A stretch of 64,000 bases of DNA from NCBI GenBank assembly GCA_002069725.1, contig MWBW01000001.1, forward strand, positions 56,583-120,582, given 5' to 3'. The position numbers and the translations under genes were made by a program. This document shows positions 7,774-64,000 of this stretch, piece by piece. This DNA is from Firmicutes bacterium ADurb.Bin248 (GTDB taxonomy: Bacteria; Bacillota; Clostridia; Christensenellales; CAG-138). How positions within the stretch are numbered: position 1 is the first letter of the stretch; every line of letters begins with the position of its first letter. The notes beneath the pieces are model-generated. The model was not told where the DNA came from and searched no databases. It saw only the letters and a list, made by a program, of their open reading frames with translations.

Positions 7774-7957
7774 CAATTGACAATCATATTTGATTCGTGC
7801 GGTCTTCGCTTGAACGGCGAAGGCCGCTTTCCTTTCGCCGCAAGGTCGGATGGGATACGTCCGCCGTCCGCTTCCGCCGCGGCGGGTTTACGTCGCCGCA
7901 TAAGCGGGCTTCCGCTTTTAAAACGGAAGCCGCCCGAATTTTTACGATTGTCAATTG
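7774..7957. repeat. Family-A heptamer heads in inverted orientation flanking about 160 bp (MITE-like unit)
   Basis: CAATTGACAATC at 7774-7785 and GATTGTCAATTG at 7946-7957 are reverse complements. The interior has hairpin GCTTCCGCTTTTAAAACGGAAGC. Confidence 0.6.
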
Positions 7958-13340: not shown

Positions 13341-13478
13341 AAGAGCGCTTCGGGGGTGGTGCGATTCCACACCGGCGGTGATGCGGCGTATGCCGACGAG
13401 CCCGCGAACCGGCCATGCGGCCGGCCGAGCCGGTGAGATCCCGGAGCCGACGGTACAGTCCGGATGGGAGAAGCGGGC
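13341..13478 (+). promoter_or_regulatory. FMN riboswitch (RFN element)
   Basis: CTTCGGGGGTGGTGCGATTCCACACCGGCGGT...GAGCCCGCGA...GCCGACGGTACAGTCCGGATGGGAGAAG matches conserved RFN core blocks. Lies upstream of an ECF riboflavin S-component. Confidence 0.85.
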
Positions 13479-13487
13479 TTTTTGCTG

Positions 13488-17900: not shown

Positions 17901-17950
17901 CAATTGAAAATTGACAATTGACAATCAGGGAACGCCGCCGTCGGGCGGGA
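17901..17950 (+). repeat. Family-A repeat (heptamer head + GC hairpin)
   Basis: CAATTGAAAATTGACAATTGACAATC + AGGGAACGCCGCCGTCGGGCGGGA. Followed by the 10-bp hairpin GCGGGGCGGC-TTGC-GCCGCCCCGC (17958-17981). Confidence 0.7.
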
Positions 17951-19024: not shown

Positions 19025-20101
19025 TCAACATTCGTCTCCCGTATACGCCTTTTCGACGTACGCGCTCGTGAAGGCGCGCAGCAGCGCGCCGTAGTCCGGC
19101 GTGAAGGAAAGCACGTCGCCGACCCGGTATTGCTCCCCCGCGCGCGTGAGGTCGACGATCAGGTGGTCCGAACTCGCGCCGAGGATATCGACGCCCGCGC
19201 CGCGCGGCGCGAGGCCGTCGGGCACGACGTCCTGCCGGCCGACGGCTAATATGCCGCGCAACATCTCGCCTCTGTCCTCGAACGAAACATATTCGCCGAA
19301 GGCATTCGGCCCGCTCCGGCCGATGGGCTTGCTGGGCTTGCGCTTGACTTCGACAAGCTGCGCTTCGAGCGTGAAGCAGTCAGGGTGGAACCCCTCCATC
19401 CGCGTTCCCGAGGCGGTTTCGTTGCCAAGAAGATACCCTTCCCCGATGCGGAGGCCGTTGACGCCTGAAGGCAGCTTCCCCGCGAGCAGCATGGGCAGCG
19501 TGCTCGAGTTGCCGCCCGAAACGAGCGGGATGGGAAGCTTGGTTTCGGCGCGGAGCCACTCCGCGATTTCAACGAGGCAGCCGAGGTTATCCGCATCCGG
19601 CAGTATGCCGCCGAAGCAAGTCAGGTTCACGCCCACGCCGTGGAGCTCGAGCATGTCCTCGCATGCGACGGCTTTGGCGAGCGCGAGGATTTCCGCGCGG
19701 TCCCGGCAGAACACGCCCTCGCGCAAATCGCCCATGTCGAGCATCAGCACGATCTTGTGCCGCCGTGCCTGACGCTTTGCCTGCGCGCCGAGCAGCCGCA
19801 CGGTCGAAATCTCGCTCTGCTGGCTCACCTCGCTGTGTGCGACGACCTGCGCCGCTTCGCACGGCTGCGCGACGCGCAGCAGGTAGCGCGGCTTTCGAGT
19901 TTTGAGCGAAGCGAGGTTTTGGAGGCGCGAGTCCGCGATATAATCCGCGCCGCTTTTTTCGATGACGGCCGCGACGAGCGCGTCCGCGCAGACGCACTTG
20001 GTCACGATCGCGCACGACGCGCCCGCGCCGTGGCAGAGGGTGACGACGCGCTCGACGTTATGCTTGAGCTTTTCCAAATCCGTAACGATTCTCGGATACA
20101 T
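19025..20101 (-). CDS. orr: Ornithine racemase (alanine-racemase-fold PLP enzyme)
   Basis: Starts MYPRIVTDLEKL with RBS GGAGGAAGC. Has a VTKC PLP-lysine region. Last gene of the ornithine degradation cluster. Confidence 0.75.
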   Translation of the reverse strand: MYPRIVTDLEKLKHNVERVVTLCHGAGASCAIVTKCVCADALVAAVIEKSGADYIADSRLQNLASLKTRKPRYLLRVAQPCEAAQVVAHSEVSQQSEISTVRLLGAQAKRQARRHKIVLMLDMGDLREGVFCRDRAEILALAKAVACEDMLELHGVGVNLTCFGGILPDADNLGCLVEIAEWLRAETKLPIPLVSGGNSSTLPMLLAGKLPSGVNGLRIGEGYLLGNETASGTRMEGFHPDCFTLEAQLVEVKRKPSKPIGRSGPNAFGEYVSFEDRGEMLRGILAVGRQDVVPDGLAPRGAGVDILGASSDHLIVDLTRAGEQYRVGDVLSFTPDYGALLRAFTSAYVEKAYTGDEC

Positions 20102-20176
20102 GCTTCCTCCGGTGGTTGGTTTCGGATGCGGGCGGATGATATCCGCCCCTACAGGGATTGTGGGTTCCCGTTCCCC

Positions 20177-20369
20177 GATTGTCAATGATCAATTGTCAAT
20201 TGTCAATTACCCCGTCCCCCGCCCGCAGGCGGGCGTTCCCTAGATTGTCAATTGTCAATTATCAATTATCCCGTCCCCGCCCGCAGGCGGACGTTCCCTT
20301 GATTGTCAATTGTCAATTATTCCGTCCCCGCTCGCAGGCGGACGTTCCCTAGATTGTCAATTGTCAATC
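20177..20369 (-). repeat. Family-A array: 3 full units plus a terminal head (periods 66, 58, 51 bp)
   Basis: GATTGTCAAT(T/G)...(heptamers) + CCGTCCCCGCCCGCAGGCGG(G/A)CGTTCCC, repeated at 20177, 20243 and 20301. The final head at 20352-20369 contains the stop of the upstream gene. Confidence 0.85.
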
Positions 20370-21727
20370 ACCCCAAGGCTTTTGCGCAGCAGCTTCAGCG
20401 CCGCCTCCGGATAATGCTTTGAGAGCACGCCGAGCGAGGCCATGATGTAATCGTCGTCAAACAGAAGCCGCGCTTCGCCGGGCTTGGGGTAGAGCATCAT
20501 GCCCGCGGAGTTGCAGTCCGCGATGGCGCGAAGGAGCGTTTCCCTGTGGGGCAGCCTTGTGAGCGCGCCGCCCGTGCCCACGATCGTTCGCACGGCGCTC
20601 AGATCCTTGCCCTCGGCGACGGTCTTTCGGCCCGACGGCGTGTAGATGTAGCGAAGCGCGCCCGCGTGGCGCTCCACGGCGCGGATGCCCGCCTCGCGGC
20701 AGAGGCGCGAGGCCAGCAAAAACTGTTCCGGCGTCTCCGGGATGGGCTTATAATCGGCCAGGACGGCCGCGACATCGAGCCTGAGCTCGTTTTTGAGCGC
20801 GTCGAGGCCGATCATGTCCACAACGTTCCTGGCGTTGATGTAAAGGCCGAGATCGCCCTCGACCGTGCGCTTGGCGAACGGCTCGGGATTGGTCAGAAGG
20901 ATCGCGATCTCCTCGGAGCCGCCGGTCACGCTGTGCACGTCCGTCGTCGCGCCGCCGATGTCTATGGCCACGAGATCGCCTATGTCGTCATAAAGAAGCT
21001 GAGCCGCCTCCATGACCGCGCCGGGCGTGGGGATGATGCTGCCCGTGACCATATCGCGGATGTGCTCCATGCCGGGCGCTTTGACGATGTGCTCCTCAAA
21101 AACCGCGTGTATGATTTTGCGCGCGGGCTCGATGTTCAGCTTATCGAGCCGGGGATAGACGTTTTCCACGACGCTGCACGGGATGCCCGCCGCGTCGAAT
21201 ATCTCCCGCACGGCGCGCTGGTTCTGGATGTTCCCCGCGTAGATGACCGGCGCGCGGACGCCGGAACCGGCCAAACGCTTCGCGTTGTAGAGCGCGGTTT
21301 CGCGCTCGCCGTAATCCGTGCCGCCCGCGAGGAGGATAAGGTTGGGCTTGACCGCGTCGATGTCCGCGAGGTCGTAATCGGTGAGCCTGCCCGCCGTCGC
21401 GAGCTTGATGATGGCGCCCGCGCCGAGCGCGGCGGCTTCTGCGGCACGGACGGTCATGTCGTACACGAGGCCGTGCACGCACATACGAAGGCCGCCCGCG
21501 GCGGAGCTGGTCGCGAGCATCTCGCCGAAGGTGATCCCGTCGCAGCCCATGCTGCGCGAAAGACCGTCTATCGCGCCCTGAAGGCCCGCGCGCACATCCC
21601 CCGCGAGCACGGAGGTCGGCGCGCAGCCCTGTCCCAAAAAGCGCGGCTCGCCCTCGTGAACGCCCGAGAAGGCGTTCACGAGGGTCGTGGTCGAGCCGAT
21701 TTCCGCTACGAGTACGTCGATATGCAT
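20357..21727 (-). CDS. MutL(GlmL)-like protein, putative aminomutase reactivase
   Basis: Starts MHIDVLVAEIGSTTT (ASKHA-like ATPase N-terminus). Position downstream of oraE matches ornithine clusters. C-terminus ...GVIDN-stop is encoded by repeat sequence. Confidence 0.7.
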   Translation of the reverse strand: MHIDVLVAEIGSTTTLVNAFSGVHEGEPRFLGQGCAPTSVLAGDVRAGLQGAIDGLSRSMGCDGITFGEMLATSSAAGGLRMCVHGLVYDMTVRAAEAAALGAGAIIKLATAGRLTDYDLADIDAVKPNLILLAGGTDYGERETALYNAKRLAGSGVRAPVIYAGNIQNQRAVREIFDAAGIPCSVVENVYPRLDKLNIEPARKIIHAVFEEHIVKAPGMEHIRDMVTGSIIPTPGAVMEAAQLLYDDIGDLVAIDIGGATTDVHSVTGGSEEIAILLTNPEPFAKRTVEGDLGLYINARNVVDMIGLDALKNELRLDVAAVLADYKPIPETPEQFLLASRLCREAGIRAVERHAGALRYIYTPSGRKTVAEGKDLSAVRTIVGTGGALTRLPHRETLLRAIADCNSAGMMLYPKPGEARLLFDDDYIMASLGVLSKHYPEAALKLLRKSLGVIDN

Positions 21728-21741
21728 GGTTCTTATTCCTA

Positions 21742-21866
21742 GATTGTCAATTGCCCCCACGGTTCGGGCCGATACGGCCCTCGGGCGACGCTCTCGGACA
21801 CTGGGCTGCGGCCGTCAGGATCGGCCCCTGCAGCCCGCCCGCGGCGGCGTTTTCCGATTGTCAATT
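21742..21866 (-). repeat. Two family-A fragments filling the oraE-reactivase spacer
   Basis: Head GATTGTCAATTG at 21742-21753. Hairpin CCCGCCCGCGGCGGCGTT + head GATTGTCAATTA at 21834-21866, overlapping the oraE stop. Confidence 0.6.
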
Positions 21867-24081
21867 ATTTGTTCGCTTCCAACTCCCTGCGGCGCTTCAC
21901 GAGGAAGGTCGCCACGTGGTTGCCGTGGCTGCCGCGGCCGAAGCCCTCGTCCGCGCCGTTGGCGCGCGCCTGGGCGGAGGCCACCTGCGTGCCGCCCGCG
22001 ACGAAAATAAGCTTGTCGCGCACGCCCATTTCGGTGGCGATGCGGTTGATCTTGCCGATGTTCTTATAGTGGATGTCGTCGTGGCTGATGATGGTGGAGG
22101 CCAGCATCGCGTCCGCGTTCAACTCTATGGCGGCGTTGACGAGCTTTTCGGGCGGCACGGAGGTCCCCAGGTAGTGCACCTCTATGCCGTATTTCTCGAT
22201 GCCGCCGTGCTTGATGTCGATGATCTCGCGAAGGCCCACGCTGTGCTCGTCCTCGCCCACGGTGCCGCACACGATCTTCATCGGGCGGCGCTCGATGTCC
22301 TTGCGGATTTCCTCGTCGCTCAATACGTCCGGCTCCTTGGGAATCACGAGCTTGTCGATCTCGATGGAGAAGGGCACCTTGCCCTTGATCTCGATGCGCG
22401 TGCCCTCGGCGCGGTGGCCGGTCTCGCGGGAAATGACCTCCACGTCCGTGAGGCCCATGCGCCTGCCGCACTCGATGGCCGCGGCCTCGGCGATGCCCTT
22501 TTCGGCGGGGAAGAACATCGTGAGCATCACGGTGCCGTCGGCGAGCCATTCCATTTCGGGGCGGATGAGCTTGGCGCCGGGCTGGGCGAATTCCTTGACC
22601 TCGGCCATGCGCACGTTGCAGTTGTCCTCCTCGTCGAGCTCGTCGATATAGACGATTTTCTCGGGCTTTTCGAGCGTGCAGCCGCCGATGAGGTCGGAAG
22701 GATTGCTCGCGCCGTACTGCGCGACGTTGTTGCAGCCGTAGTGCGCGGTAACGGGCGCGCAGTAGTCCTCCGCGCGCTTGACGATGGTGCCCGCGCCTAT
22801 GCCGCCGTTGATCTTGCGCGCGATGCCGTCGCCGTTGCGCTCGGGGTACATGCCCGAGTCGACGAACATGCCCGCCTCGACCGCGGCGAAGTAGCCGCCG
22901 AGCTCCACGATCTCCTCCATGAAGAGCACCGCGCGCTCCTTGAGCTCGCGCGCCTTGTCCCTGAGATAGCCGTCCTTCTTGAGTTCGACCATCTCCATGA
23001 GGCCGTCCATGCCCACGAGCGCCTGCTTGGCGGTGTCGCACGCCTCGAGGTTGTAGATGTGCCAGGGCACGTTTCGGCCTTCGTCCGGCGTGATGGTGGA
23101 CTGTATGTCCGCGCTGGTCAGCTTGGAGATTACCATGTTCAACACGTGCGTCACCGTCGCCTCGCGCGTAGAGGATTCGATGTATTTCGTGTTCATCTGC
23201 GCGCGCATGCGGTACTCGTGGAACAGGTCGCGCAGCGCCACCGCGTAGGGCAGATCCTGATGGATGCACGGCCCCGGCGTCGCCGAGGGCGGCACGGTCG
23301 AGAGGCAGATGTTCTTTTTGGGCACGCCGACCTTCGCGGAGAAAATCGAGTTGATCGCGTGCTGCACCATCAGTTCCGGCATGACCTTCCAGGCGTCGCG
23401 CGCTGTGGCGTTGGCGTTGTGCGCGCCGTCGATCTGCGCCTGTTTCGCCCAGGCGATCAGGGTCTTTGATTCGCACGCGTCCACGAAGGAGCGGACCATG
23501 TTGATGTTGCGGTAAATGACGTTGTACTGCGGGTCCTGGTGGGCGCCGTTGACGCCCTCCTCGGCGAACATCACGGCGATGTCCGGCCCCGCCACGCCCG
23601 AAACGTAGCTGTGGTAGTTGATGGGGCGGCCGACCTCATCCTCGATCCGGTCGAGCGCCTTCCTCTGCGCGCGGACCTGCTTGCGCGTGACCGGCACGCC
23701 GCCCATGCCCTGCGGGGTACCCTCGATGAGGCCGTCGAAATGGCTCTGCCCTGCGGTGCGTATGACCATGATGTGGTCCGCGCCGTGGTGCGCCGCCATG
23801 CGCATGCGACGGATGTCGTCCTCGAAACGGCCCGAGGAGATCTCGGTCGTGATCACGGGCGAGGGCTGCGGGTCGATGTCCCCGAAATAGTGCGCGGGGG
23901 GCAGGGGCACGGAGTCCGCGAGCGGCTTGGTGCAATCCTGATATTCGAAGGGGCCCATGCGAAGCCCGGGCGCGGGCTCGCGCCACGTCCAGCCGCGCCT
24001 GCGGGGGCGGTAGTTCCCGAGGTCCTTGAGTATCTCGGCGACGTCGATGTTCTCGTTCGGGTCAAGCTTATATTCGCTCAT
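21865..24081 (-). CDS. oraE: D-ornithine 4,5-aminomutase, E (large, B12/PLP) subunit
   Basis: 738 aa. C-terminal B12-binding DxHxxG motif (GEDEHSVG). RBS GGGAGG. Confidence 0.9.
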   Translation of the reverse strand: MSEYKLDPNENIDVAEILKDLGNYRPRRRGWTWREPAPGLRMGPFEYQDCTKPLADSVPLPPAHYFGDIDPQPSPVITTEISSGRFEDDIRRMRMAAHHGADHIMVIRTAGQSHFDGLIEGTPQGMGGVPVTRKQVRAQRKALDRIEDEVGRPINYHSYVSGVAGPDIAVMFAEEGVNGAHQDPQYNVIYRNINMVRSFVDACESKTLIAWAKQAQIDGAHNANATARDAWKVMPELMVQHAINSIFSAKVGVPKKNICLSTVPPSATPGPCIHQDLPYAVALRDLFHEYRMRAQMNTKYIESSTREATVTHVLNMVISKLTSADIQSTITPDEGRNVPWHIYNLEACDTAKQALVGMDGLMEMVELKKDGYLRDKARELKERAVLFMEEIVELGGYFAAVEAGMFVDSGMYPERNGDGIARKINGGIGAGTIVKRAEDYCAPVTAHYGCNNVAQYGASNPSDLIGGCTLEKPEKIVYIDELDEEDNCNVRMAEVKEFAQPGAKLIRPEMEWLADGTVMLTMFFPAEKGIAEAAAIECGRRMGLTDVEVISRETGHRAEGTRIEIKGKVPFSIEIDKLVIPKEPDVLSDEEIRKDIERRPMKIVCGTVGEDEHSVGLREIIDIKHGGIEKYGIEVHYLGTSVPPEKLVNAAIELNADAMLASTIISHDDIHYKNIGKINRIATEMGVRDKLIFVAGGTQVASAQARANGADEGFGRGSHGNHVATFLVKRRRELEANK

Positions 24082-24093
24082 GTTCTGCCTCCC

Positions 24094-24444
24094 TCAAAAC
24101 GCGGCCGCGGCTTCGTCCCAAAGCCTGCCCTCGCACAATGCGAGTCCCGCGTCCCGTATGTCCAGCTTCTGCGCCCGCGCGAGCCGCAGCACCACGTTGC
24201 CCGCGCCGTGGGCGAGCAGGTTCCTTTCGATGCAGCCGTCCACGATCTGCTTCGCCTCGATGGAGGAGAAGCCCATGCGCAGCAGCACGCTGCGCTCGAT
24301 GGCGGGCGAGGTGTTCTCATAGCCCATTTTCAGCATGGGCTCTACGATCTGCCCCGCGAGCGCCCAGAAGCGCTCCCCGAGCTCCTTATCGCTCAGGTTC
24401 GCGAGGGGTGCGCGCCTTACTTGATAATCGTCCTCTCTCTTCAT
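24094..24444 (-). CDS. oraS: D-ornithine 4,5-aminomutase, S (small) subunit
   Basis: 116 aa, directly upstream of oraE. RBS AAGGAGA. Confidence 0.85.
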   Translation of the reverse strand: MKREDDYQVRRAPLANLSDKELGERFWALAGQIVEPMLKMGYENTSPAIERSVLLRMGFSSIEAKQIVDGCIERNLLAHGAGNVVLRLARAQKLDIRDAGLALCEGRLWDEAAAAF

Positions 24445-24454
24445 GGTGCTCTCC

Positions 24455-25858
24455 TTACTGGTTGGCCTCTATGGCCGCGCGTACGAACGCCTCGTCCGTC
24501 CTGGTTTCCTCGGCGAGGAAGGCGACGTCCGCGTCGGTCGGCGCGACTTTGAAGTTCGCGAGTGCGTTGCGGATCAAAGAACCGCGCAGGTGGCCGAGGT
24601 CGGCGTCGCGCGCTTTGATCAGGTTGGGATGCGCGGGCAGTATGATGCTCTTGCCCGGAACCTCCTCGGCGGGGTCGCCGAAGCGGATGTCTATGCCGTT
24701 TTTCCTCGCGAAGTCGAGCTGCGGGTTGATGTGCTTGCCCGCGCCCGTATATTCGGTCTCCTGCACGACGATGCACTGATCCGCGTCCATTTCCTGCGCG
24801 ATGGAGAACGCCGCCGCGAGCGACACGTTGCCCGCGGGCCCGCGCTCGAGCCCCTCGAGGGAGGCGAGCATCTCGGTGGTGTAGAACACCTCGCCCTGGC
24901 TGAGGGTGACGTAGCGCTCCATATAGCGCAGCGGGCGCGCCGCGCTCCTCGGCACGTCGCTCCTGTCCGGCCAGGTGGAAAACGGCATGCCGAAGCCCGT
25001 GTGGCCCGTCGTGAAGGACTTTCTGTTAAACTGCGTGTCGCTTGCCATGTGGAGGCCCGCGAGGTTCACGCTCGCGCCGATGACCGTGGCCTTGCAGCCG
25101 GCCTTGATGAGACCGCGCGCCGTGCCCGTGAGGTTGCCGCCGCCTGCGTTGGTGGCGACGACCGCGTCCGGATCGCGGCCGAACTTGGCGCGGAACTGCT
25201 CGGCGATTTCGTAGCCGAGCGTCTCCACGCCGACGACGCCGTAGGCGTTGTAGAGCGAGGCGTTGAAGTAGCCCGTATCCTCGAGCGCCCTGAGGAACAT
25301 GTAAAAGAGCTCGGGGCCGACCGTGAGCTGCACGACCTCCGCGCCGAAGGCCTCGCACTTCCTGGCTTTTTCGATGATTTCGGGCTGGCCGAGCTTATGC
25401 GAGTCGTAGCATTCCTGCATGACGATGCAGCGAAGGCCGCTCATGGCGCACACGCTGGCCACCGCCGCGCCGTAGTTGCCCGAGGTCGCAGCGATGGCGC
25501 CCTTGTAGCCCATCTTTTTGGCGGTGTAAATGCTCGTCGCCGCGCGGCGGGCCTTGAAGCTGCCCGAAGGGTTCGCGGCCTCGTCCTTGATGAAGATGCG
25601 CGCGCCCTTGCCCGCGGGGGCGAGCTTGCGCGCGAGGGCCGTGATGTTTTTGAGTTCGATCAGAGGCGTGTTGCCGATCGAGAAGCCGCTCTGGATGCGC
25701 CTGACCTCCTCGATGTTAAGGCCGGTGGAGGCGAGCATGCCCTCGTAATCGAAGGCGATCGAGCCGGATTCGAACTTCGCGTAATCCATGCCGACTGCCG
25801 TCTTCATGATTTCGCCCTTGCGGGCCATGACCGCTTCGTAGCTGTTGTCGCGCATCAC
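24455..25858 (-). CDS. ortB: 2-amino-4-ketopentanoate thiolase, beta (PLP) subunit
   Basis: Tryptophan-synthase-beta-fold PLP enzyme with SGSFKARRA lysine motif. Start is GTG 25858 or ATG 25855, overlapping the ortA stop. Confidence 0.85.
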   Translation of the reverse strand: MMRDNSYEAVMARKGEIMKTAVGMDYAKFESGSIAFDYEGMLASTGLNIEEVRRIQSGFSIGNTPLIELKNITALARKLAPAGKGARIFIKDEAANPSGSFKARRAATSIYTAKKMGYKGAIAATSGNYGAAVASVCAMSGLRCIVMQECYDSHKLGQPEIIEKARKCEAFGAEVVQLTVGPELFYMFLRALEDTGYFNASLYNAYGVVGVETLGYEIAEQFRAKFGRDPDAVVATNAGGGNLTGTARGLIKAGCKATVIGASVNLAGLHMASDTQFNRKSFTTGHTGFGMPFSTWPDRSDVPRSAARPLRYMERYVTLSQGEVFYTTEMLASLEGLERGPAGNVSLAAAFSIAQEMDADQCIVVQETEYTGAGKHINPQLDFARKNGIDIRFGDPAEEVPGKSIILPAHPNLIKARDADLGHLRGSLIRNALANFKVAPTDADVAFLAEETRTDEAFVRAAIEANQ

Positions 25859-26154
25859 CGCTCACCTCCGAACAAAATGTCGCGCACGTCGTCGCCGATT
25901 TTGAGTATCTCCGGCACGAAATCGCCGTAGCCGTGCCTGTGCTGCGGATCGACCTCGACGAGCGTGCCGCGAAGGCTGCGCTTTGTCCGGGTCGTGATCT
26001 CGACCTCGTCGCCGATCTCGGCGTCCTGCGTGAGGTAGCCCTTCGTCCACATCTCCAGAGGCACCCGACGGGTATCCTCCGGCACCTGCGGAGCGCGCTG
26101 CTCCGGCGTGAGCACGACGGTGTGCAGCAGCACCCAATCGCCTTTTTTAGCCAT
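25855..26154 (-). CDS. ortA: 2-amino-4-ketopentanoate thiolase, alpha subunit
   Basis: 99 aa (MAKKGDWVLLHTVVL...). RBS GGAGGG lies 6 nt before the ATG at 26154. Confidence 0.8.
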   Translation of the reverse strand: MAKKGDWVLLHTVVLTPEQRAPQVPEDTRRVPLEMWTKGYLTQDAEIGDEVEITTRTKRSLRGTLVEVDPQHRHGYGDFVPEILKIGDDVRDILFGGER

Positions 26155-26244
26155 GACCATCCCTCCGATTTTTTAATGATAAACCAATGATTGCGGGGGA
26201 GCGCCGGAAGGCCGAAGCCCGCCGGCGTCCCAATGATGCTCCGT

Positions 26245-27291
26245 TTATTTTTCGATCATGTCCCTCATGTCGCCCATGATGGCGTGGGGGACGGGCAGGT
26301 CGAGCATGGTCTTGAGGCCGGGCCTCGCGTTGATGACGTGCGGGATCATATTGACGCACATGGCGATGGTGCCTATGCCGCCGTCCACCTCGGGGGTGTT
26401 GGCCATGTTGATGTTCGGCGTGCCCTTGATGACGATGTAGTCGCCGGTCTGGGTGCCTTCCATCTCGGGCTCGATCTGCTGGGGATGGATGAGGTCGATG
26501 CGCTGCACGCCGTCCACATAGGCCTGCGCGGTCATGTTGACGCCGGCCACGTCGCCGGCCTTGGCGAAGCCGTAGGGGGACTTGCGATCCACGCCCGTCA
26601 CGATGGGCTTCATCTGCTGCTCGAATTTGTCGATCTTCCAGCCCATGGCTTCGGCGATCATGCCCGCGGACTCCGCGAAGCCCACGTGGCCCGAGAGATG
26701 GCCGTTCTTGCAGCCTTCCTCGAACTCTTTCACCGTGATGCCGATGCCCTGCTCCTTCATGACCAGCGGGCCGAAGGGCGAGAGGGAGTTGACGCGCTTG
26801 CACATCACGCTCTCGACGTCCGTCATGCAGCCGGAGAAGCAGATCGCCAAAAGATCCATCATCAGGCCGGGGTTGATGCCCGTGCCGAGCACCGTGACGC
26901 CGTTTTCCTTGGCGAGCCGGTCCATCTCGGCAGCGAGCTCGGGCTCCTGCGCCTTGGGGTAGCTCATCTCCTCCGCGATGGAGACGACGTTGATGCCCTG
27001 CTCGACGGCGTACTTGATCTTGGGGAACACGTCGCGCGTGAACGAGTCGGTCGCGATCACGCAGATGTCGGCCGCGCCCTTGTAAACGACCTTGGTGATG
27101 TCGGTGTGGATGAGCGCCTCGGGACGATCTCCGCGCTCGATGCCCAGCACCTCGTACATGCTCTTGCCCTCGTACTTGGGGTTCTGACGGCATACGCCCG
27201 TGATTTCGACGCCCTTTTTGCGGCAGAGCACCTCGGCGATGCCGCTGCCCATGGCCCCGAAGCCCCACATAGCTACCCTGATGTTGTTCAT
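26245..27291 (-). CDS. ord: 2,4-diaminopentanoate dehydrogenase
   Basis: N-terminal Rossmann motif (VAMWGFGAMGSG), dihydrodipicolinate-reductase-like fold, 348 aa. First gene of the cluster. RBS GGAGGAAG. Confidence 0.85.
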   Translation of the reverse strand: MNNIRVAMWGFGAMGSGIAEVLCRKKGVEITGVCRQNPKYEGKSMYEVLGIERGDRPEALIHTDITKVVYKGAADICVIATDSFTRDVFPKIKYAVEQGINVVSIAEEMSYPKAQEPELAAEMDRLAKENGVTVLGTGINPGLMMDLLAICFSGCMTDVESVMCKRVNSLSPFGPLVMKEQGIGITVKEFEEGCKNGHLSGHVGFAESAGMIAEAMGWKIDKFEQQMKPIVTGVDRKSPYGFAKAGDVAGVNMTAQAYVDGVQRIDLIHPQQIEPEMEGTQTGDYIVIKGTPNINMANTPEVDGGIGTIAMCVNMIPHVINARPGLKTMLDLPVPHAIMGDMRDMIEK

Positions 27292-27494: not shown

Positions 27495-27550
27495 CAATTG
27501 ACAATGGACAATGGACGATTGACAATCGGGAACGCCGCCTGCGGGCGGGG
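27495..27550 (+). repeat. Family-A repeat (variant head + GC hairpin)
   Basis: CAATTGACAATGGACAATGGACGATTGACAATC + GGGAACGCCGCCTGCGGGCGGGG. Confidence 0.75.
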
Positions 27551-27694
27551 GTTTCCCGTTCCTTTTATGCGCCGGGGACGGTTCCGCGTTTTTCCGGCGT
27601 CCCTGTTCCGGCGAAGCGGCATCTTCATCCTTTGCCCTGCTCATCCTCACGCGTGCAAAACCGTCCCCCGAGCGGCGAAGAACCTTTTGTTCCG

Positions 27695-27980
27695 CTCCGG
27701 GGACGGTTTTCGGTGAAAGAGGGTAGTGAAAGTCAAAGGCGGCCGCTGCCGCTTTTCGGAAGATGACCTGCCGGAAGCTGCCGAGAACCGTCGCCGACGC
27801 CCGAACAAACAGAGTTCCCCGCCCGCAGGCGGCGTTTTATGCTCCGGGGACGGCTCTCAGTAAAAGAGGGTGGTGAAAGTCAAAGGCGGTCGCTGCCGCT
27901 TTTCGGAAAATGACCTGCCGGAAACTGCCGAGAACCGGCGCTCGAAGGAAAAGAGTTCCCCGCCCGCAGGCGGCGTTTCT
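27695..27980 (+). repeat. Tandem duplication, 2 x about 147 bp, each unit ending in a family-A hairpin
   Basis: Units start CTCCGGGGACGG at 27695 and 27842. They share ...GTGAAAGTCAAAGGCGG(C/T)CGCTGCCGCTTTTCGGAA.ATGACCTGCCGGAA.CTGCCGAGAACCG...GTTCCCCGCCCGCAGGCGGCGTT. Confidence 0.8.
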
Positions 27981-28020
27981 TGTCCCCGATTGTCAATTGT
28001 CCATTGTCAATTGTCCATTG
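27955..28020 (-). repeat. Family-A repeat, inverted relative to 27495-27550
   Basis: GTTCCCCGCCCGCAGGCGGCGTT ... GATTGTCAATTGTCCATTGTCAATTGTCCATTG. The head contains the stop codon of the 28007..29374 gene. Confidence 0.75.
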
Positions 28021-30856: not shown

Positions 30857-31041
30857 CCGTATTAAATAACAACGCGCGGCGCTACTCCACAAAATAGCCC
30901 GCAGACGTTGGAAAAAGGAGGCCGTTCCAACCGCGCGGGCTCGCGGTGCGGCAGTGTGGAGACCTGCCGTAATGCGCGTCGTATCAATTTTGCGCGCGCG
31001 AGGCGTATTCCGCGGAGGCGGGTGCGCCGGAGCCCGGATGT

Positions 31042-32235
<1,194 letters not shown>

Positions 32236-32253: not shown

Positions 32254-32441
32254 CCGGGGATTGTCAAGGGGCCGCGGCCCCTTGACTTTCATTCCGGCTT
32301 TGACGACACGCGCGTCAAAACGGATGAAAGCCGTAGGCGTTCGTACCTTTCACGCTTTGCCGCTCGGAAATACCGCAGTATTTTGGGCAAAGCGTGCAGT
32401 CTAAAAAAAAGCGGCTTTGTCGCTTTTTTGAAAGCGAAGCG
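32254..32441 (+). repeat. Family-B structured repeat, copy 1
   Basis: GGGGATTGTCAAGGGGCCGCGGCCCCTTGAC... Shares four helices with the copies at 48087 and 53238. Lies between the msmX-like stop and a terminator. Confidence 0.75.
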
Positions 32442-32447
32442 CAGCGC

Positions 32448-33075: not shown

Positions 33076-34167
33076 ATGAAACTCGGCGTCGTCGGCTTGC
33101 CCAACGTGGGCAAATCTACACTGTTCAACGCCATCACGCGCGCGGGCGCGGCGGCGGCGAACTATCCTTTTTGCACCATAGAGCCCAACGTGGGCATCGT
33201 CGCCGTGCCGGACGAGCGGCTCGACGTGCTCGCGGCAATGTATTCCCCCGAGAAGTACACGCCCACGGCCATCGAGTTCGTGGACATCGCGGGCCTCGTC
33301 AGGGACGCGCACAAAGGCGAGGGCCTCGGCAACAAGTTCCTCTCGCACATACGCGAGGTGGACGCCGTCGTCCACGTCGTGCGCTGCTTCGAGGGCGGCA
33401 ACGTCGTGCACGTCGACGGCTCGGTGAGCCCCGCGCGGGATGTGGAAACCATCGAAATCGAGCTGATCTTCGCCGACCTCGAGACCGTCGAGCGCCGCGC
33501 GGAGCGCGCGAGGAAGGCCAGCAAGTCGGGCGACAAGGCCGTCGCCGCGGAGGCGGATTTTTACGAGGCCATCAAGGCCTGGCTCGAGGCGGGCAAGCCC
33601 GTGCGCACCATGCCCATGGACGAGAAGCAGGCGGAGTTCGCAAAAAGCCTGTTCCTTCTCACGACAAAGCCCGTCATCTATGTGGCCAACATCGCCGAGG
33701 GCGACATCGGCATGCCCGACAACGCGCATGTTCGCGCCGTAAAGCAGATCGCGGCCGCCGAGGGCGCGGAGGCCGTCGTCATTTGCGCCAGGGTCGAGGA
33801 GGAGATCGCCGAGCTTTCCCGCGAGGAGAAAGAGGCGTTCATCGAGGAGCTGGGCATAGGCGAGAGCGGCCTCGACAAGCTCGTGCGCGCGTGCTACAAG
33901 CTGCTCGGGCTTATCAGTTTCCTGACCGCGGGGCCTAAGGAGGTGCGCGCGTGGACCATAGAGCGCGGCACGAAGGCGCCGCAGGCCGCGGGCAAGATCC
34001 ACACGGACTTCGAGCGTGGCTTCATCCGCGCGGAAATCGTGCCGTTCGAAACGCTCAGGCAGTTCGGCTCCATGCAATCCTGCAAGGAGAAAGGGCTCGT
34101 GCGCAGCGAGGGCAAGGATTACGTCATGCAGGACGGCGACGTGACGCTGTTCCGGTTTAACGTGTAG
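33076..34167 (+). CDS. ychF: Redox-regulated ATPase YchF
   Basis: [10 protein letters not shown]-loop, a 363-aa OBG-family protein with a TGS-like C-terminus. Confidence 0.95.
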
Positions 34168-34168
34168 G

Positions 34169-34290
34169 GCAATTGACAATTGAAAATTGACAATTGACAA
34201 TCAGAGAACGCCGCCTGCGGGCGGGGCACGGAGCAATTGACAATTGAAAATTGACAATTGACAATCAGAGAACGCCGCCTGCGGGCGGGG
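34169..34290 (+). repeat. Family-A repeat, two tandem full units (period 64 bp)
   Basis: Twice: GCAATTGACAATTGAAAATTGACAATTGACAATCAGAGAACGCCGCCTGCGGGCGGGG. Starts 2 nt after the ychF stop. Confidence 0.9.
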
Positions 34291-34348
34291 TTTCGTGCGG
34301 GGACGGATTCCGAGGGCCGCATCCGCCCGCGCTTTGCCGGGAGAAAAC

Positions 34349-39811: not shown

Positions 39812-39987
39812 TTCACCTCCTTGAAAATAAAATCCTTTGCCTAAGACAAAGGATGAAAGGACGCCGTATGCTTGCGTCGCGCTTCACCTCGGCGGGATAT
39901 TGAGCCGCAAAGCGGCACCTGCTGTCTTCGGCCTGCGGTATTTGATTTTCCACGGGGCAGTGTATCACACCGCCCCGCGGTTGTCAA
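39812..39987 (-). promoter_or_regulatory. rplJL promoter plus L10-leader-like attenuator
   Basis: Minus strand: TTGACA (39987-39982), 17-nt spacer, TACACT (39964-39959). The roughly 130-nt leader ends in hairpin ATCCTTTG-N7-CAAAGGAT + TTTTATTTT (39854-39823) just before the RBS. Confidence 0.55.
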
Positions 39988-43726: not shown

Positions 43727-44344
43727 ATGCGGGAAATGCTTGACGAAAAGGGACGCACGCTCGCGCGATTTCTCGCCGAGTACGACATAGACAAGTACCG
43801 CCGCCCGTCCTGCGCGGTCGACATGGCGGTGTTCACCGACGAACAGGAACCCTCCGTGCTGCTCATCCGGCGGCGCAACCATCCCTACATCGGCCGCTGG
43901 GCGCTGCCGGGCGGCTTCGTCGGGTTCGACGAAACGCTCGAGCACGCCGCCGCGCGCGAGCTCGAGGAGGAAACGGGCGTAACGGACGCGGAGCTTCACC
44001 CGTTCGGCGTGTTCGACGCGGTGGACCGCGACCCGCGCACGCGCGTCATTTCGACCGGGTTTTACGCCGTGCTGCCGCGCGAGCGGCTTTGCTTTCGCGC
44101 GGGGGACGATGCCGCAGACGCCGCGCTTTTCTGCGTAACTTCCGTGCGCGAGCTCGCGCACAGCGCCGCGGCCTCGATCTTGGGCATAACGCTCGTCGGG
44201 CCGGCTCTCATAGAATGCCGCGCGCGCGTGCTCTACGGCGCGCGCGGCGAGAAGGTCGTTCCCCTGGCAAAGCCCGGCGAAGGGGGCCTCGCCGCCGACC
44301 ACGACTGCATTTTGCTGAGCGCGCTGCGCGCTTTAAACAATTGA
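43727..44344 (+). CDS. NUDIX hydrolase
   Basis: Nudix box GGFVGFDETLEHAAARELEEETGV. Extended -10 TGATATAAT upstream. The stop TGA lies inside a family-A head. Confidence 0.85.
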   Translation: MREMLDEKGRTLARFLAEYDIDKYRRPSCAVDMAVFTDEQEPSVLLIRRRNHPYIGRWALPGGFVGFDETLEHAAARELEEETGVTDAELHPFGVFDAVDRDPRTRVISTGFYAVLPRERLCFRAGDDAADAALFCVTSVRELAHSAAASILGITLVGPALIECRARVLYGARGEKVVPLAKPGEGGLAADHDCILLSALRALNN

Positions 44345-44532
44345 CAATTGAAAATTGACAATTGACAATCGGCTTACAATCGAACGGGCTTTCGCTTTAA
44401 GGTGCGCAAGCCCGTTTTCGTTGGGTTCCTCACATGTTTTTCGCGGTTTTCTGTCCGCGATGCAAATAACCGGCAGCCAAACCGATTCACTTGATTGTCA
44501 ATTGTCCATTGTCAATTGTCAATTGTCAATTA
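44338..44532. repeat. Inverted pair of family-A heads bracketing a convergent intergenic region
   Basis: CAATTGACAATTGAAAATTGACAATTGACAATC (44338-44370) and GATTGTCAATTGTCCATTGTCAATTGTCAATTGTCAATTA (44493-44532). The interior has hairpin AACGGGCTT...AAGCCCGTTTT. Confidence 0.8.
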
Positions 44533-48086: not shown

Positions 48087-48308
48087 GGGGATTGCCAAGG
48101 GGCCGCGCCCCTTTATTTTTATTCCGGCTTTGACGAACAAGGCGGATTGCCGCGCGGCGGCAAGAGGGGATTTCCTGGGGCACATGCGCGTCAAAACGGA
48201 TAAAAGCCGAAGGCTTTTGCACCCGTCGCGCTTTGGCGCCCGGAAACGCGCAGCGGTCCGGGCAAAGCGCGCAGCCTCAAAAAAGCGGCGGAGCCGGGTT
48301 TTTGAAAG
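48087..48308 (+). repeat. Family-B structured repeat, copy 2 (with a roughly 45-nt loop insertion)
   Basis: GGGGATTGCCAAGGGGCCGCGCCCC...TTTTATTCCGGCTTTGACG...CGTCAAAACGGATAAAAGCCG...CGCGCTTTGGCGCCCGG...CCGGGCAAAGCGCG... Confidence 0.75.
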
Positions 48309-48309
48309 A

Positions 48310-49671
48310 CTAGAGCAGTTTCTTCGTTTGCACGTATACGTCCCCGCTGCCCACGGTGACCACGAGGTCGCCCGGGCGCGCGTTTTTCTCAAGATAGCTG
48401 TTGATTTCCTCGAAGGTCGCAAGGTATACGGCCTCCGATCCTCCCGCCCGGATGCCGCGCACCATGTCGCGCGCATGGACGCTTCCGTCGTCCTTCTCGC
48501 GGCCGGGGTAGATGTCCGGCACGAGCACGGCGTCCGCGTCGGCAAAGCAGGTCACGTTTTCGAGGAAAAGCGTCTTGGCGCGCGTGTAGGAGTTGCACTG
48601 GAACACGCAGTAGAGCTTCCCGTGACGCATGCGCTTTGCCGCGGCGAGCGTCGCGGCGATCTCGGCGGGGTGGTGCCCGTAGTCATGGTAGATCCTCACG
48701 CCGTTCTTCTCGCCGTAGAATTCGAAGCGCCTGCGCGTGTTCTCGAACCGGGCGAGGGCGAAGGAGATCTGCTCCATCGGCGCGCCGAGCGCGAGGGCGA
48801 CCGCCGCGGCCGCCACCGCGTCTATGAGCGCGTGCCCTCCCGGCACCTTAAGCTTTATGCTGCCCAGTTTTTCCCCGCGGAACACGAGCTCGAACGAGGC
48901 GCAGCCGAACTCGTCGAACGCGACGTTTTCGGGGGTGTAATCCGCGTCCCTCATGCCGTAGGAAAGCTTGTTCCCCGCGTGCGCCGCGAGCAGCGCACGC
49001 ACGCGCGGGTCGTCCGCGCAGCCGAGGAAAAGCCCGTCCCCGGGCAAAAGCGCGACGAATCTTCGGAACGCGTCAACGATGTGCTCCATATCCCCGTAGT
49101 AGTCGAGGTGGTCGTTGTCGATGTTGTTGACGAGCGCGACGGTGGGCCGGAGCGTCAAAAAGCTTTCGACGTACTCGCACGCCTCGGTGATGAACAGCTC
49201 GTGCGAGCCCAGGCGCACGCCGCCCTTGAGGAAATCCACGAAGCCGCCGACGTGCACCGTCGCGTCGAGCGCGCCGGTTTCGCAGATCAGCGCGAGCATC
49301 GAGGTGACGGTGGTCTTGCCGTGGCAGCCCGCGATGCCCGCGACCTGCCCGTAGCCCTCCGTGAGCTGCCCGAGCGCCGCGCTGCGCTCGATTTCGGGTA
49401 TGCCCCGCGCCCGCGCCGCCGCGCGTTCGATGTTATCCGCCCTGACCGCCGCGGAGTAGATCACGAGATCCGCGTCGCCGAGGTTCCCCGCGTCGTGGCC
49501 GATGAAAACGGGTATTTTAAGCTCGGCCAGCCTCTGCGTGAACGGGGAAACATTCTGGTCCGAGCCCTGCACCGCGTATCCGCGCGCGTTAAGTATCTGC
49601 GCGAGGCCGCTCATCGAGCAGCCGCCGATGCCGATCAAATGGATGCGTTTGTGTTCGCTGATGTGCGCCAT
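48310..49671 (-). CDS. murC: UDP-N-acetylmuramate--L-alanine ligase
   Basis: GIGGCSMSGLA and GCHGKTT motifs; 453 aa. Confidence 0.95.
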   Translation of the reverse strand: MAHISEHKRIHLIGIGGCSMSGLAQILNARGYAVQGSDQNVSPFTQRLAELKIPVFIGHDAGNLGDADLVIYSAAVRADNIERAAARARGIPEIERSAALGQLTEGYGQVAGIAGCHGKTTVTSMLALICETGALDATVHVGGFVDFLKGGVRLGSHELFITEACEYVESFLTLRPTVALVNNIDNDHLDYYGDMEHIVDAFRRFVALLPGDGLFLGCADDPRVRALLAAHAGNKLSYGMRDADYTPENVAFDEFGCASFELVFRGEKLGSIKLKVPGGHALIDAVAAAAVALALGAPMEQISFALARFENTRRRFEFYGEKNGVRIYHDYGHHPAEIAATLAAAKRMRHGKLYCVFQCNSYTRAKTLFLENVTCFADADAVLVPDIYPGREKDDGSVHARDMVRGIRAGGSEAVYLATFEEINSYLEKNARPGDLVVTVGSGDVYVQTKKLL

Positions 49672-53220: not shown

Positions 53221-53237
53221 AATCAATCGTTTCAATC

Positions 53238-53436
53238 CGGGGATCGTCAAGGGGCCGCGGCCCCTTGACTTTTGATCCGGCTTCGGCGGCATGTGCGCCG
53301 AAACGGACGAAAGCCGGAGTTTTTTGGTTCCGCCGCGCTTTGGTCCGCGGCGGAAGCGCCGCCCGGAAACGCGCGGCATTTCAGGCAAGAGCCTGCAGGC
53401 TCAAAGAAACGGCGAAACCGCCGCTTTGAAGGCGAA
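53238..53436 (+). repeat. Family-B structured repeat, copy 3
   Basis: GGGGATCGTCAAGGGGCCGCGGCCCCTTGAC...GGCTTCGGCG...CGCCGAAACGG... with compensatory changes relative to copies 1 and 2. Confidence 0.75.
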
Positions 53437-53446
53437 GCCTGAATCG

Positions 53447-54731: not shown

Positions 54732-54764
54732 GATTATCAATTGTCAATTATCAATTATCAATTG
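54732..54764 (-). repeat. Family-A head (GATAAT-rich variant), no hairpin
   Basis: GATTATCAATTGTCAATTATCAATTATCAATTG, 6 nt from the stop of the 54771..56111 gene. Confidence 0.7.
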
Positions 54765-60158: not shown

Positions 60159-60199
60159 TAATTGACAATTGATAATTGACAATTGACAATCGGGGAACG
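60159..60199 (+). repeat. Family-A head with a degenerate tail
   Basis: TAATTGACAATTGATAATTGACAATTGACAATC + GGGGAACG, 4 nt after the deoD stop. The family-C hairpin follows at 60245-60263. Confidence 0.7.
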
Positions 60200-62476: not shown

Positions 62477-63172
62477 ATGACGTTCAAGCATAGATCGGGC
62501 GGCTCCGCCCTGCCGCGCGCGGCGGCTCTGCTGCTCGCGCTCCTGTTCCTTTTCGCCGGATGCGCGGGAAGCGGCGGGGCCGGCGGCACGCAGCCGCCCG
62601 CGCCGAGCGAAAGCGGTATCGACAGCGGCACGCAACCGCCCGCGCCGGGGCAAGGCGGCGCTGACGGCGGCGCGCAGTCGCCCGCCCCAAGTGAAAGCGG
62701 CGCGGACGGCGAGGTATCCGACAAGGCGCTCTTTGGCGATTTCACAGCCAAGGACACCGAAGGCAACGCCGTCACCAACGACATCTTCGCGGATTACGAC
62801 GTAACCATGGTCAACATCTGGGCCACGTTCTGCGGCTATTGCGTGCGGGAGATGCCCGCGCTCGAAGAACTCGACGAGGAGTATCGCGACCGCGGCTTCC
62901 AGATCGTGGGCGTCGTCGTCGACGCGACGGACCAGAAGGGCAACGTGGACGACGCGCTGCTCGCCGAGGCGCTGGACATCATCGCGCAAACCGGCGCGGA
63001 CTACACGCACATCGTCCCCTCGGCCGAAATGTTCGGCAAGTTCCTCAAGGGCGTGCGCTATCTGCCCACGACCGTGTTTGTCAACAGCAGGGGCGAAGCC
63101 ATAGGTTCCGCCTACGAGGGCGCTATGGAAAAGGAGGACTGGGCGAAAATCATCGAGGAAAAGCTCGGATAA
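62477..63172 (+). CDS. TlpA/ResA-like thiol-disulfide oxidoreductase lipoprotein
   Basis: Lipobox LFAGC; thioredoxin-fold WATFCGYC active site. Confidence 0.85.
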   Translation: MTFKHRSGGSALPRAAALLLALLFLFAGCAGSGGAGGTQPPAPSESGIDSGTQPPAPGQGGADGGAQSPAPSESGADGEVSDKALFGDFTAKDTEGNAVTNDIFADYDVTMVNIWATFCGYCVREMPALEELDEEYRDRGFQIVGVVVDATDQKGNVDDALLAEALDIIAQTGADYTHIVPSAEMFGKFLKGVRYLPTTVFVNSRGEAIGSAYEGAMEKEDWAKIIEEKLG

Positions 63173-63359: not shown

Positions 63360-63396
63360 TTGACGCCTCCAACTGTAACTGTTATAACTACAGTAT
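63360..63396 (+). promoter_or_regulatory. Promoter with embedded 26-nt operator motif (copy 2)
   Basis: TTGACG, 17-nt spacer, TATAAC. Motif AACTGTAACTGTTATAACTACAGTAT at 63371-63396, matching copy 1 at 25 of 26 positions with the same geometry. Confidence 0.6.
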
Positions 63397-63420
63397 CAAA
63401 AATGTTTGGAGGTAAGTTTG

Positions 63421-64000
63421 ATGAAGTTTTCGGAACAGCTCAAGGGATTCATTCGGCTGCGCAACCTCGTCGTTGCCGCGCTGCTCGCGATAATGCTGAC
63501 GCTGGGCGGGTGCGCGGGCAACGCCGCGATCATCGACGAACAGGCTGAGCCCGAGGCGCGCAGCGCGCAGCTTGCGCCCGAGACGACCGAGCCCGAGGCC
63601 GCCCCGACCGAGGCCGCCGCGACCGACGAACCCGCGCTCGACGCGAGCGCGACCGAGCCCGCGGTTTCCGGCGCAGACGAAAGCGCCGCCCCCGCGAACG
63701 AGAGCGCCGCGCCCGCGGCCAAGCCGGACGCGACCGCCACGGCGAAGCCTGCGGCGAGCGCCAAGTCGACCACGGCCCCGACCGCGAAGCCGACCGCGGC
63801 CCCGACGGCGAAGCCGACTACAGCTCCGACCGCGAAGCCAACTGCGGCTCCGACGGTGAAGCCGACCGCGGCCCCAACGGCGAAGCCGACTGCGAAGCCG
63901 ACCACGGCCCCGACGGCGAAGCCGACCGCGAAGCCCACGGCTGCGCCGACCGCCAAGCCGACCGCGAAGCCCACGGCCGCGCCGACCGCCAAGCCTGCCG
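63421..64000 (+). CDS. Lipoprotein with a (T/A)AKPT(A/T)AP tandem-repeat region, partial (runs off window)
   Basis: RBS GGAGG. MKFSEQLKGFIRLRNLVVAALLAIMLTLGGCAG has a lipobox. From about 63700 the sequence repeats PTAKPTAA. The minus-strand track ORF 63396..63992 is its shadow. Confidence 0.65.
   Translation, partial: MKFSEQLKGFIRLRNLVVAALLAIMLTLGGCAGNAAIIDEQAEPEARSAQLAPETTEPEAAPTEAAATDEPALDASATEPAVSGADESAAPANESAAPAAKPDATATAKPAASAKSTTAPTAKPTAAPTAKPTTAPTAKPTAAPTVKPTAAPTAKPTAKPTTAPTAKPTAKPTAAPTAKPTAKPTAAPTAKPA

Follow-up and report, generated by a model that had tools for sequence, protein, structure and literature searches.

A stop-codon-associated composite of CAATTGA heptamers and a GC palindrome in a Christensenellales-like clostridial genome

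Between the genes ychF and luxE of Firmicutes bacterium ADurb.Bin248 (assembly GCA_002069725.1, contig MWBW01000001.1) lies a short stretch of DNA, positions 34169–34290, in which two copies of a composite repeat stand head-to-tail. The contig segment analysed here, referred to below as the window, is 64 kb long with a G + C (GC) content of 63.7% and carries ~ 60 genes; all positions are given in window coordinates. Each copy at this locus consists of an AT-rich head of tandem CAATTGA-type heptamers closed by CAATC, followed by a short linker, a GC palindrome and a closing G-rich tail, the whole forming a perfect 64-nt × 1.9 tandem, in agreement with an earlier sequence-only reading of this DNA which had described two near-identical 64-bp units. 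Sporulation genes elsewhere in the window (SpoIIR, YpeB and SleB-type) indicate that the host belongs to a spore-forming Clostridia lineage.

The heads are not confined to this locus. A pattern census of the window returns 17 of them at 13 sites, on both strands as had been stated before, all of the form (YAATTGA)1–5 and all with a terminal YAATC; they start at 7774, 7946, 17901, 20177, 20243, 20301, 20352, 21742, 21856, 27495, 27988, 34170, 34234, 44338, 44493, 54732 and 60159. The sequence-only reading had placed a head at each of these coordinates, and its total of 14 was a miscount. Within the window, the heads contain 39 of the 41 YAATTGA words and have a GC content of 28.7% against the overall 63.7%; the two-heptamer sequence CAATTGACAATTGA, allowing up to two mismatches, is matched 49 times where 0.17 matches are expected, and the pattern of the junction behind the head nine times where 0.41 are expected. 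The modal head is 33 nt long, being four heptamers plus CAATC, and eight of the 17 heads have exactly this form. Tandem Repeats Finder reports a period of 7 at the multi-heptamer heads, those with a single heptamer plus YAATC (7774, 7946, 21742 and 21856) being too short for it. Variant heptamers within the heads are AAATTGA (34170 and 34234), CAATGGA (27495) and TAATTGA (54732). The earlier claim of a genuine interspersed composite repeat family is supported.

In its usual form, the composite runs from the head through a linker of 6–8 nt (RRGGAAC) into a 14-nt GC palindrome, CCGCC-TGCG-GGCGG. This hairpin is present on only nine of the 17 heads, contrary to the earlier statement that every copy has the same build: heads 7946, 44338 and 54732 lead into ordinary terminator-like hairpins, heads 20177 and 60159 into another palindrome, and head 21742 into a ribosome-binding site (RBS) and start codon. 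Since some heads precede ordinary terminators instead of the GC palindrome, the heptamer array is an independent module. Its sole palindromic core is the 6-bp CAATTG. The 12-mer TGTCAATTGACA, previously put forward as a palindromic core, is absent from the window, and that claim therefore fails; with it, support is lost for the suggestion of a binding site for a dimeric protein, which rested on the missing 12-bp palindrome and, moreover, does not explain the strict sense orientation of the heads with respect to the upstream gene (see below). The longer, imperfect GC hairpin between the second unit and luxE is related to the GGGGACGG and GTAGGGGCGGAT modules that adjoin other heads. As a whole, the ychF–luxE gap folds better than shuffled controls (z = −4.7), and, given that CAAUUG is self-complementary, a four-heptamer array is predicted to be able to fold as an interrupted AU hairpin beside the 5-bp GC hairpin.

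The most informative feature of the family, which the earlier reading missed, is the coincidence of head starts with stop codons. At ten of the 13 sites in the window, a gene-like open reading frame (ORF) on the same strand ends close to the head, the head starting between −14 and +6 nt from the final base of the stop codon of that ORF. For the high-GC loci, polarity was assessed using gene-like sense ORFs filtered by the GC content of third codon positions, with a mirror control that applies the same criterion to the complementary strand, starting from the far end of the array. Pooling the window with high-GC loci of related Clostridia gives 40 independent heads, 23 of which are stop-adjacent (−14 to +11 nt), against 0 of 40 in the mirror orientation. 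The copies lie between a stop codon and whatever signal comes next; stop-adjacent heads either start 0–11 nt past the stop of the upstream gene or themselves supply that stop, and they are sense to that gene. The latter arrangement is found at heads 7946, 20352, 21856, 27988, 44338 and 44493, which the upstream ORF enters and where a heptamer TGA or TAA is its stop codon; at these six the earlier description of all copies as intergenic does not apply, while it stands for part of the family. The tails of proteins encoded by ORFs that run into arrays are of the type ..GVIDN*, ..AMDN*, ..LNN*, ..PQGN* and ..VIDE*. As read directly from the heptamer, three heptamers on the head strand (CAA TTG ACA ATT GAC AAT TGA) stop all three frames, the reverse strand being open in every frame. 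Where two genes converge, each has its own head, so that heads 7774/7946 and 44338/44493 form inverted pairs with a terminator between them.

Outside the high-GC Clostridia, a scan with AATTGACAATTGACAATC, taking one genome per species, finds CAATTGA arrays at at least 110 loci in Bacteroidota, Clostridia, Planctomycetota, Cyanobacteria, Acidobacteriota, Patescibacteria and others, most of which, among the matches listed, carry the heptamers without the GC palindrome. At the low-GC loci among these listed matches, which span many phyla and in which long ORFs can be trusted, 26 of 89 arrays start where a sense ORF of 100 codons or more comes to its end, against two of 89 in the mirror orientation; a long ORF enters the array in 23 sense and five antisense cases, and adjacency to start codons is without polarity (16 against 16 in the mirror). 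The bias towards stop codons in low-GC loci across phyla makes the stop-codon rule a property of the heptamer array itself, not one special to the composite. Other tandem heptamers are frequent at these loci, and at seven of them they occur beside the CAATTGA arrays (for example GTAATTC/GTAATTA, GGTCATC, GGTCATT, CCATTAT, AACCAAT and AATCATA), which suggests that genomes with CAATTGA arrays are heptamer-prone as a whole. The coordinates of all heads, and of the other features of the window, are collected in Table 1.

Table 1. Repeat elements and further features of the window.
Feature	Position	Strand	Remarks
Unit 1 head, ychF–luxE locus	34170..34202	+	CAATTGA CAATTGA AAATTGA CAATTGA + CAATC, 33 nt; 2 nt past ychF stop TAG (34165-34167)
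Unit 1 GC palindrome, GCCGCC-TGCG-GGCGG	34210..34224	+	5-bp stem, tetraloop; linker AGAGAAC before, GGCACGGAG after
Unit 2 head, ychF–luxE locus	34234..34266	+	Identical to unit 1 head
Unit 2 GC palindrome	34274..34288	+	
Imperfect longer GC hairpin, GCGGGGACGGAT...ATCCGCCCGC	34296..34333	+	Between last unit and luxE start ATG (34349)
Head, one heptamer + CAATC	7774..7785	+	5 nt past stop of M55 peptidase gene
Head, one heptamer + CAATC	7946..7957	-	Its TGA is the stop of the 52-aa ORF 7951-8109; then terminator-like hairpin
Head, three heptamers + CAATC, plus hairpin CCGCC-GTCG-GGCGG	17901..17948	+	Antisense to both flanking genes
Four tandem units, periods 51-59 nt	20177..20370	-	Inside ornithine-fermentation operon, before racemase gene; first two heptamers overlap end of mutL-like gene (protein ..GVIDN*)
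Single heptamer + CAATC	21742..21753	-	14 nt upstream of mutL-like start codon
Head + hairpin CCGCC-GCG-GGCGG	21828..21867	-	TAA of head is the stop of ornithine aminomutase (oraE-like) gene
Head, four heptamers with CAATGGA variants, + hairpin	27495..27548	+	Orphan; upstream sense gene absent
Head, four heptamers, + hairpin	27960..28020	-	Overlaps end of HMGL-like gene (protein ..AMDN*)
Head, 33 nt	44338..44370	+	TGA of first heptamer is the NUDIX gene stop; then terminator-like hairpin
Head, five heptamers	44493..44532	-	TAA of its first heptamer is the stop of the 78-aa ORF 44530-44766; convergent with 44338 head
Head, 33 nt, TAATTGA variants	54732..54764	-	6 nt past gene stop; then intrinsic-terminator-like hairpin + T-run
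Head, 33 nt	60159..60191	+	4 nt past PNP_UDP_1 gene stop; then degenerate GC palindrome
Putative gene, 52 aa	7951..8109	-	No Pfam match; gene-like codon bias
Putative gene, 78 aa	44530..44766	-	No Pfam match; gene-like codon bias
Ornithine-fermentation cluster	19028..27291	-	2,4-Diaminopentanoate dehydrogenase, OrtA/OrtB-like, ornithine aminomutase S/E, MutL-like reactivase, racemase-like gene
Second interspersed family, ~180 nt, three copies	32254..32444, 48182..48318, 53237..53442		62-83% alike
FMN riboswitch	13342..13479	+	Upstream of ECF transporter S-component gene
malK-I RNA motif	30868..31047	+	Strong match, 131.6 bits; immediately upstream of, and slightly overlapping, start of MalK-type ABC ATPase gene (31042-32235)
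Ribosomal protein L10 leader	39817..39949	-	Upstream of rplJ-rplL
Coding tandem repeat, 42-nt period x 3.4	62569..62711	+	N-terminal part of thioredoxin-like protein
Coding tandem repeat, 12/24-nt periods	63396..63994	-	(G/A)-A-V-G-F-A-V-G-like repeat protein, continues past window end

That the ychF–luxE repeats could be an assembly artefact, a doubt raised in the sequence-only reading, is answered by independent assemblies. The exact YchF protein occurs on 11 contigs from such assemblies, comprising two metagenome-assembled genomes (MAGs) at NCBI, sewage and wastewater assemblies at ENA, and assemblies from JGI and Logan. The repeat locus is present in nine independent assemblies, eight of which span the whole gap, the ninth ending inside the first array, and it is therefore not an artefact. 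Within this set, one strain (L112) has three 64-nt units where the window has two, with point differences between the units. Among four strains sharing 21 kb at ~ 0.13% divergence, this gain of 63 nt is the only indel in any repeat, and the number of heptamers per array is unchanged throughout.

At greater distances, the sites themselves come and go, such that the comparison for presence or absence proposed in the earlier reading shows gain and loss between species together with the change from two to three units between strains. The composite is also found in 'Christensenellales bacterium AnMBR.bin257', whose YchF is 87% identical. In four relatives with YchF identities of 85–91% (L205, L207, L208 and L210), the ychF–luxE gap is without heptamers. 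The same four have a gene for a 164-aa GNAT acetyltransferase between ychF and luxE; in the window, the repeat units stand there instead and the gene is missing. Behind hpt, a head is present in the closest relative and absent from the window. Three species share the site that follows the M55 peptidase stop, with one heptamer in the window, at least three in L208 and four in L020. Density varies likewise: the window has about one site every 5 kb and L208 three sites in 10.6 kb, whereas L207 and L210 have no site across 21 kb. The mutL-like/racemase gap, which has four units in the window, contains heptamers in 0 of the 80 metagenome relatives examined (67–77% protein identity), its length usually being much smaller, at ~ 10–130 nt, in those relatives where the racemase follows; in one lineage, the composite is found in the gap neighbouring this one. 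In a human-gut lineage at 76–77% MutL identity (L140–L142), the composite lies antisense against the mutL-like RBS, ~ 25 nt upstream of the start codon, and sister lineages (L145 and L148) retain only a degenerate CAATGATCCGC remnant.

Several further observations concern the surroundings of the repeats. The units occupy two internal gaps of the ornithine-fermentation cluster. The heads at 27495 and 27988 enclose a 700-nt gap free of genes, within which positions 27560–27990 contain a 147-nt tandem duplication (27694–27794 and 27841–27941, 91% alike), extra GC palindromes (27819 and 27960) and inverted GGGGACGGTT and AACCGTCCCC modules, and resemble a locus in a different Clostridia MAG (73% similarity across 357 nt). 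The second interspersed family of ~ 180 nt shares conserved stretches, GCGTCAAAACGGATGAAAGCCG and CCCGGAAACGCGCAGC among them, and each of its copies lies in a gap after a gene; it has no Rfam match.

Database searches with the repeats were largely negative. An Rfam search, as had been proposed in the earlier reading, gives no match on any head, either at gathering score or up to an E-value of 1, and literature searches for CAATTGACAATTGA and CAATTGA return no paper on a bacterial repeat in the literature collection covered. Plasmid and phage BLAST searches with the locus do not find the composite unit and give only 32-nt heptamer matches (a Sphaerospermopsis plasmid and a gut phage), a scan of viral contigs gives five matches only, and a tRNA scan finds none. 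As had also been noted before, no transposase, RAYT or cas gene is present among the ~ 60 genes of the window. The contention that the family lies outside described families is thus upheld in so far as Rfam and the literature collection covered give no match, and is not upheld in that heptamer arrays are a known class, represented by the long simple sequence repeats (LSSR), the cyanobacterial short tandemly repeated repetitive sequences (STRR) and the TAACTGA repeats.

The heptamer part of the family is a member of this bacterial class of tandem heptanucleotide repeats: a 7-nt unit is repeated head-to-tail in the multi-heptamer heads, the heads are dispersed over 13 mainly extragenic sites in 64 kb, with more in related MAG loci, and three-frame stops are found on the forward strand only. 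Tandem heptanucleotide repeats are over-represented in bacteria without an explained function (PMC4679880, PMC4692102, bioRxiv 10.1101/2022.06.06.494920) and, according to the summaries of Mrazek (2007) given in PMC4679880 and PMC4692102, heptanucleotide units are the commonest LSSRs in many bacteria. The nearest described relatives are the TAACTGA repeats, abundant in marine Beggiatoaceae, found also in some Cyanobacteria and Bacteroidetes, and with no known function (MacGregor 2015, PMC4679880). Their unit is one to two bases from TAATTGA/CAATTGA, and they share tandem heptamers in sets of 2–6, many intergenic sites, a patchy occurrence across phyla, three-frame stops on the forward strand and, in some sets, overlap with an upstream stop codon (PMC4679880). 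Unlike the CAATTGA heads, which lie at stop codons in a high-GC Clostridia lineage, the Beggiatoaceae sets mostly lie a few nucleotides upstream of start codons (PMC4679880) and have no GC palindrome attached; moreover, TAACTG is not self-complementary, whereas CAATTG is. STRR, LSSR and the Xanthomonas GGGAATC repeats (Mrazek 2007, as cited in PMC4679880 and PMC4692102) likewise comprise dispersed, mainly intergenic and lineage-enriched tandem 7-nt units, the array length of which varies between related genomes; these have other units and hosts, and their arrays are often long (up to 26–43 units) and variable, whereas CAATTGA arrays are short, peak at four units, have a fixed CAATC 3′ end and are joined to a hairpin. 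Heptads in promoters, such as TTTTGAT upstream of ctxAB and TTTTGAA in Nostoc recF/recO (bioRxiv 10.1101/2022.06.06.494920), are likewise 7-bp units in tandem beside genes, and a regulatory role has been proposed for them, but they stand upstream of genes, where their effect, established or supposed, is on transcription factor binding, and not downstream of stops, where many CAATTGA heads face no gene at all.

The other point of comparison is with the repetitive extragenic palindromic (REP) sequences and bacterial interspersed mosaic elements (BIME) of Enterobacteria and Pseudomonas, which are high-copy extragenic GC palindromes in 3′ untranslated regions (UTRs) or between the genes of operons and form modular mosaics and tandem clusters, as the present family does. 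REPs are often found near stop codons, with proposed effects on mRNA 3′-end stability and translation termination. The CAATTGA family differs from them in its 14-nt palindrome without GTAG, in units arranged head-to-tail where those of REP/BIME alternate, in the AT-rich heptamer array that is integral to it, and in that there is no RAYT gene among the genes of the window.

A number of established element types were considered, most of which are rejected. REP/BIME in the strict sense do not fit a 14-nt palindrome that is preceded by GGAAC, lacks GTAG and stands in head-to-tail clusters (20177–20370 and 34169–34290). A family of GTAG-type REPs adjoining the heads is equally discounted, as GTAGGGGCGGAT has one exact copy (20141) and its near-matches are not enriched (eight against 6.1 expected). 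A CRISPR array is rejected because whole units repeat without unique spacers and the window has no cas genes. With respect to miniature inverted-repeat transposable elements, single heads have no inverted partner, and the convergent pairs that resemble terminal inverted repeats (7774/7946, 27495/27988 and 44338/44493) have each arm abutting the stop of its own gene, with no target-site duplication evident. The placement typical of TAACTGA repeats, a few nucleotides upstream of a start codon, fits only 21742, ten of the 13 sites being at stop codons. STRR in the strict sense are rejected on account of the Clostridia host and the different unit sequence.

From the observed anatomy, position, orientation, polymorphism and distribution of the repeats, the account that we favour, somewhat short of an even chance and hence tentatively, is that of a lineage-amplified, REP/BIME-like mosaic repeat of 3′-UTRs and intercistronic gaps in a Christensenellales-like spore-forming Clostridium, where it would serve as transcript punctuation. 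New in comparison with the systems above are the fusion of heptamers and GC palindrome into a tandemly multiplying unit, amplified in a narrow Christensenellales-like lineage, and the sharply peaked 33-nt array with its fixed CAATC end and strict stop-codon polarity. Local increase in the number of units presumably comes from unequal recombination or from slippage between arrays, as the polymorphism of two versus three units in the ychF–luxE gap would suggest, and related species differ by the gain and loss of sites. The element would be transcribed within the 3′-UTR or intercistronic RNA, in which the array may act as a three-frame translational backstop and spacer, and the stem-loops behind it could protect or process RNA ends in the manner of REP elements. 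Being tolerated inside an operon, the element does not act as an efficient terminator.

Several observations weigh against this account. Three of the 13 sites break the stop-codon rule, 17901 and 27495 being antisense or orphan and 21742 lying beside a start codon. The GC hairpin is near-invariant over 20 copies from several genomes, with zero compensatory pairs and no better support than in shuffles, such that selection on RNA structure is not demonstrated, and any role at the level of RNA is one that we infer. Three-frame stops would require only one or two heptamers, whereas four is the modal number, and the variants CAATGGA and CAATCGA contain no stop. No transposase is seen in the window that would account for copies reaching new sites. 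Lastly, the sense bias could stem purely from selection filtering insertions and not from function.

This last point is the basis of the principal rival, a possible though rather unlikely one, in which the family is a selfish or neutral repeat spread by slippage, recombination or a RAYT/IS200-type single-stranded DNA transposase, selection leaving only those copies that are harmless, that is, sense and behind a stop. The gain and loss of sites between close species, the polymorphism of unit number between strains, the sharply different density among relatives (about one per 5 kb in the window against zero in 21 kb in L207 and L210), the hairpin without covariation, the degenerate remnants and the GTAG-type REP-like hairpin adjoining one cluster are all consistent with such an origin, and, as CAATTG is self-complementary, each array is a direct and at the same time an inverted repeat, an arrangement that promotes slippage. 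Filtering, however, does not readily explain that half of the stop-adjacent copies keep a native stop 1–11 nt upstream, nor that the mirror orientation is found in 0 of 40 cases even in non-coding 3′ zones; moreover, array lengths show a sharp peak at 33 nt and no broad spread, heptamer numbers are constant among four strains, and the window has no transposase.

A bolder extension of transcript punctuation, which must be considered unlikely, is that (YAATTGA)n is a cross-phylum, orientation-specific mark of the end of translation, either a three-frame backstop or a landing site directly after stops for a conserved ribosome- or RNA-associated factor, which in the Christensenellales-like lineage became fused to a REP-like hairpin and amplified genome-wide. 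Slightly more doubtful still is a general protein platform, on RNA (for cold-shock, S1 or CsrA-type proteins, or as the entry of an endoribonuclease beside a guiding hairpin) or on DNA (for nucleoid or regulatory proteins on repeated half-sites). The recurrence of the heptamer CAATTGA across phyla, the regular 7-nt period and the AT-rich, single-strand-prone stretches in a GC-rich genome point in this direction, as do RNA-binding candidates proposed for TAACTGA repeats (PMC4679880) and a partner proposed for the Nostoc heptamers (10.1101/2022.06.06.494920). Against it, no candidate protein is tied to the repeats in the window, binding to DNA does not predict orientation with respect to the upstream gene, and the proposed 12-bp dimer site is, as noted, absent from the window.

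It is very unlikely that the four-heptamer array is a sigma-A promoter with the GC hairpin as the stabilising 5′ end of its transcript, even though each 33-nt head contains TTGACA and GACAAT at a spacing of exactly 17 nt and scores 9–10 of 12, nearby matches of 12 of 12 attest to the TTGACA/TATAAT consensus in the host genome, and the array ends at the last T of GACAAT, which would put transcription initiation at the base of the hairpin. Ahead of at least six heads (7774, 7946, 17901, 27495, 44338, 44493 and 54732) lie convergent gene ends and no gene that could be driven, which argues against a promoter as the general role; heads of one to three heptamers are too short for both hexamers, start-codon polarity is missing across phyla among the matches listed (16 against 16), and Bacteroidota, in which promoters are of a different type, have these arrays too. 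A family of intrinsic terminators is highly improbable: despite the position after stop codons, the GC stem, the short T-rich stretch often found after the last unit of a cluster (17935 and 27543) and a GGGCGGTGTTTTTTG carried by one relative copy, the stem is just 5 bp, several heads precede a separate and much better terminator, an intrinsic terminator is flagged on the head strand at 17935 only, and the scarcity of T-runs, missing from most copies, together with the occurrence of units within an operon means that the units are not efficient terminators.

In practical terms, gene callers will extend ORFs into the arrays, with tails like ..IDN* as the sign of it, and assemblers may collapse the tandem units. 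The same features provide experimental handles, in the form of a 33-nt module, a rule of stop codon and sense orientation, albeit weaker across phyla, and natural variants in unit number (two or three) and in presence or absence. Were the end-of-translation mark true, the long-unexplained heptanucleotide repeats of bacteria would gain a concrete role. If the polarity reflects function, it would mean control at the boundary of translation termination and mRNA 3′-end formation; if it reflects only selection on insertions, the repeats would map where a compact genome tolerates junk.

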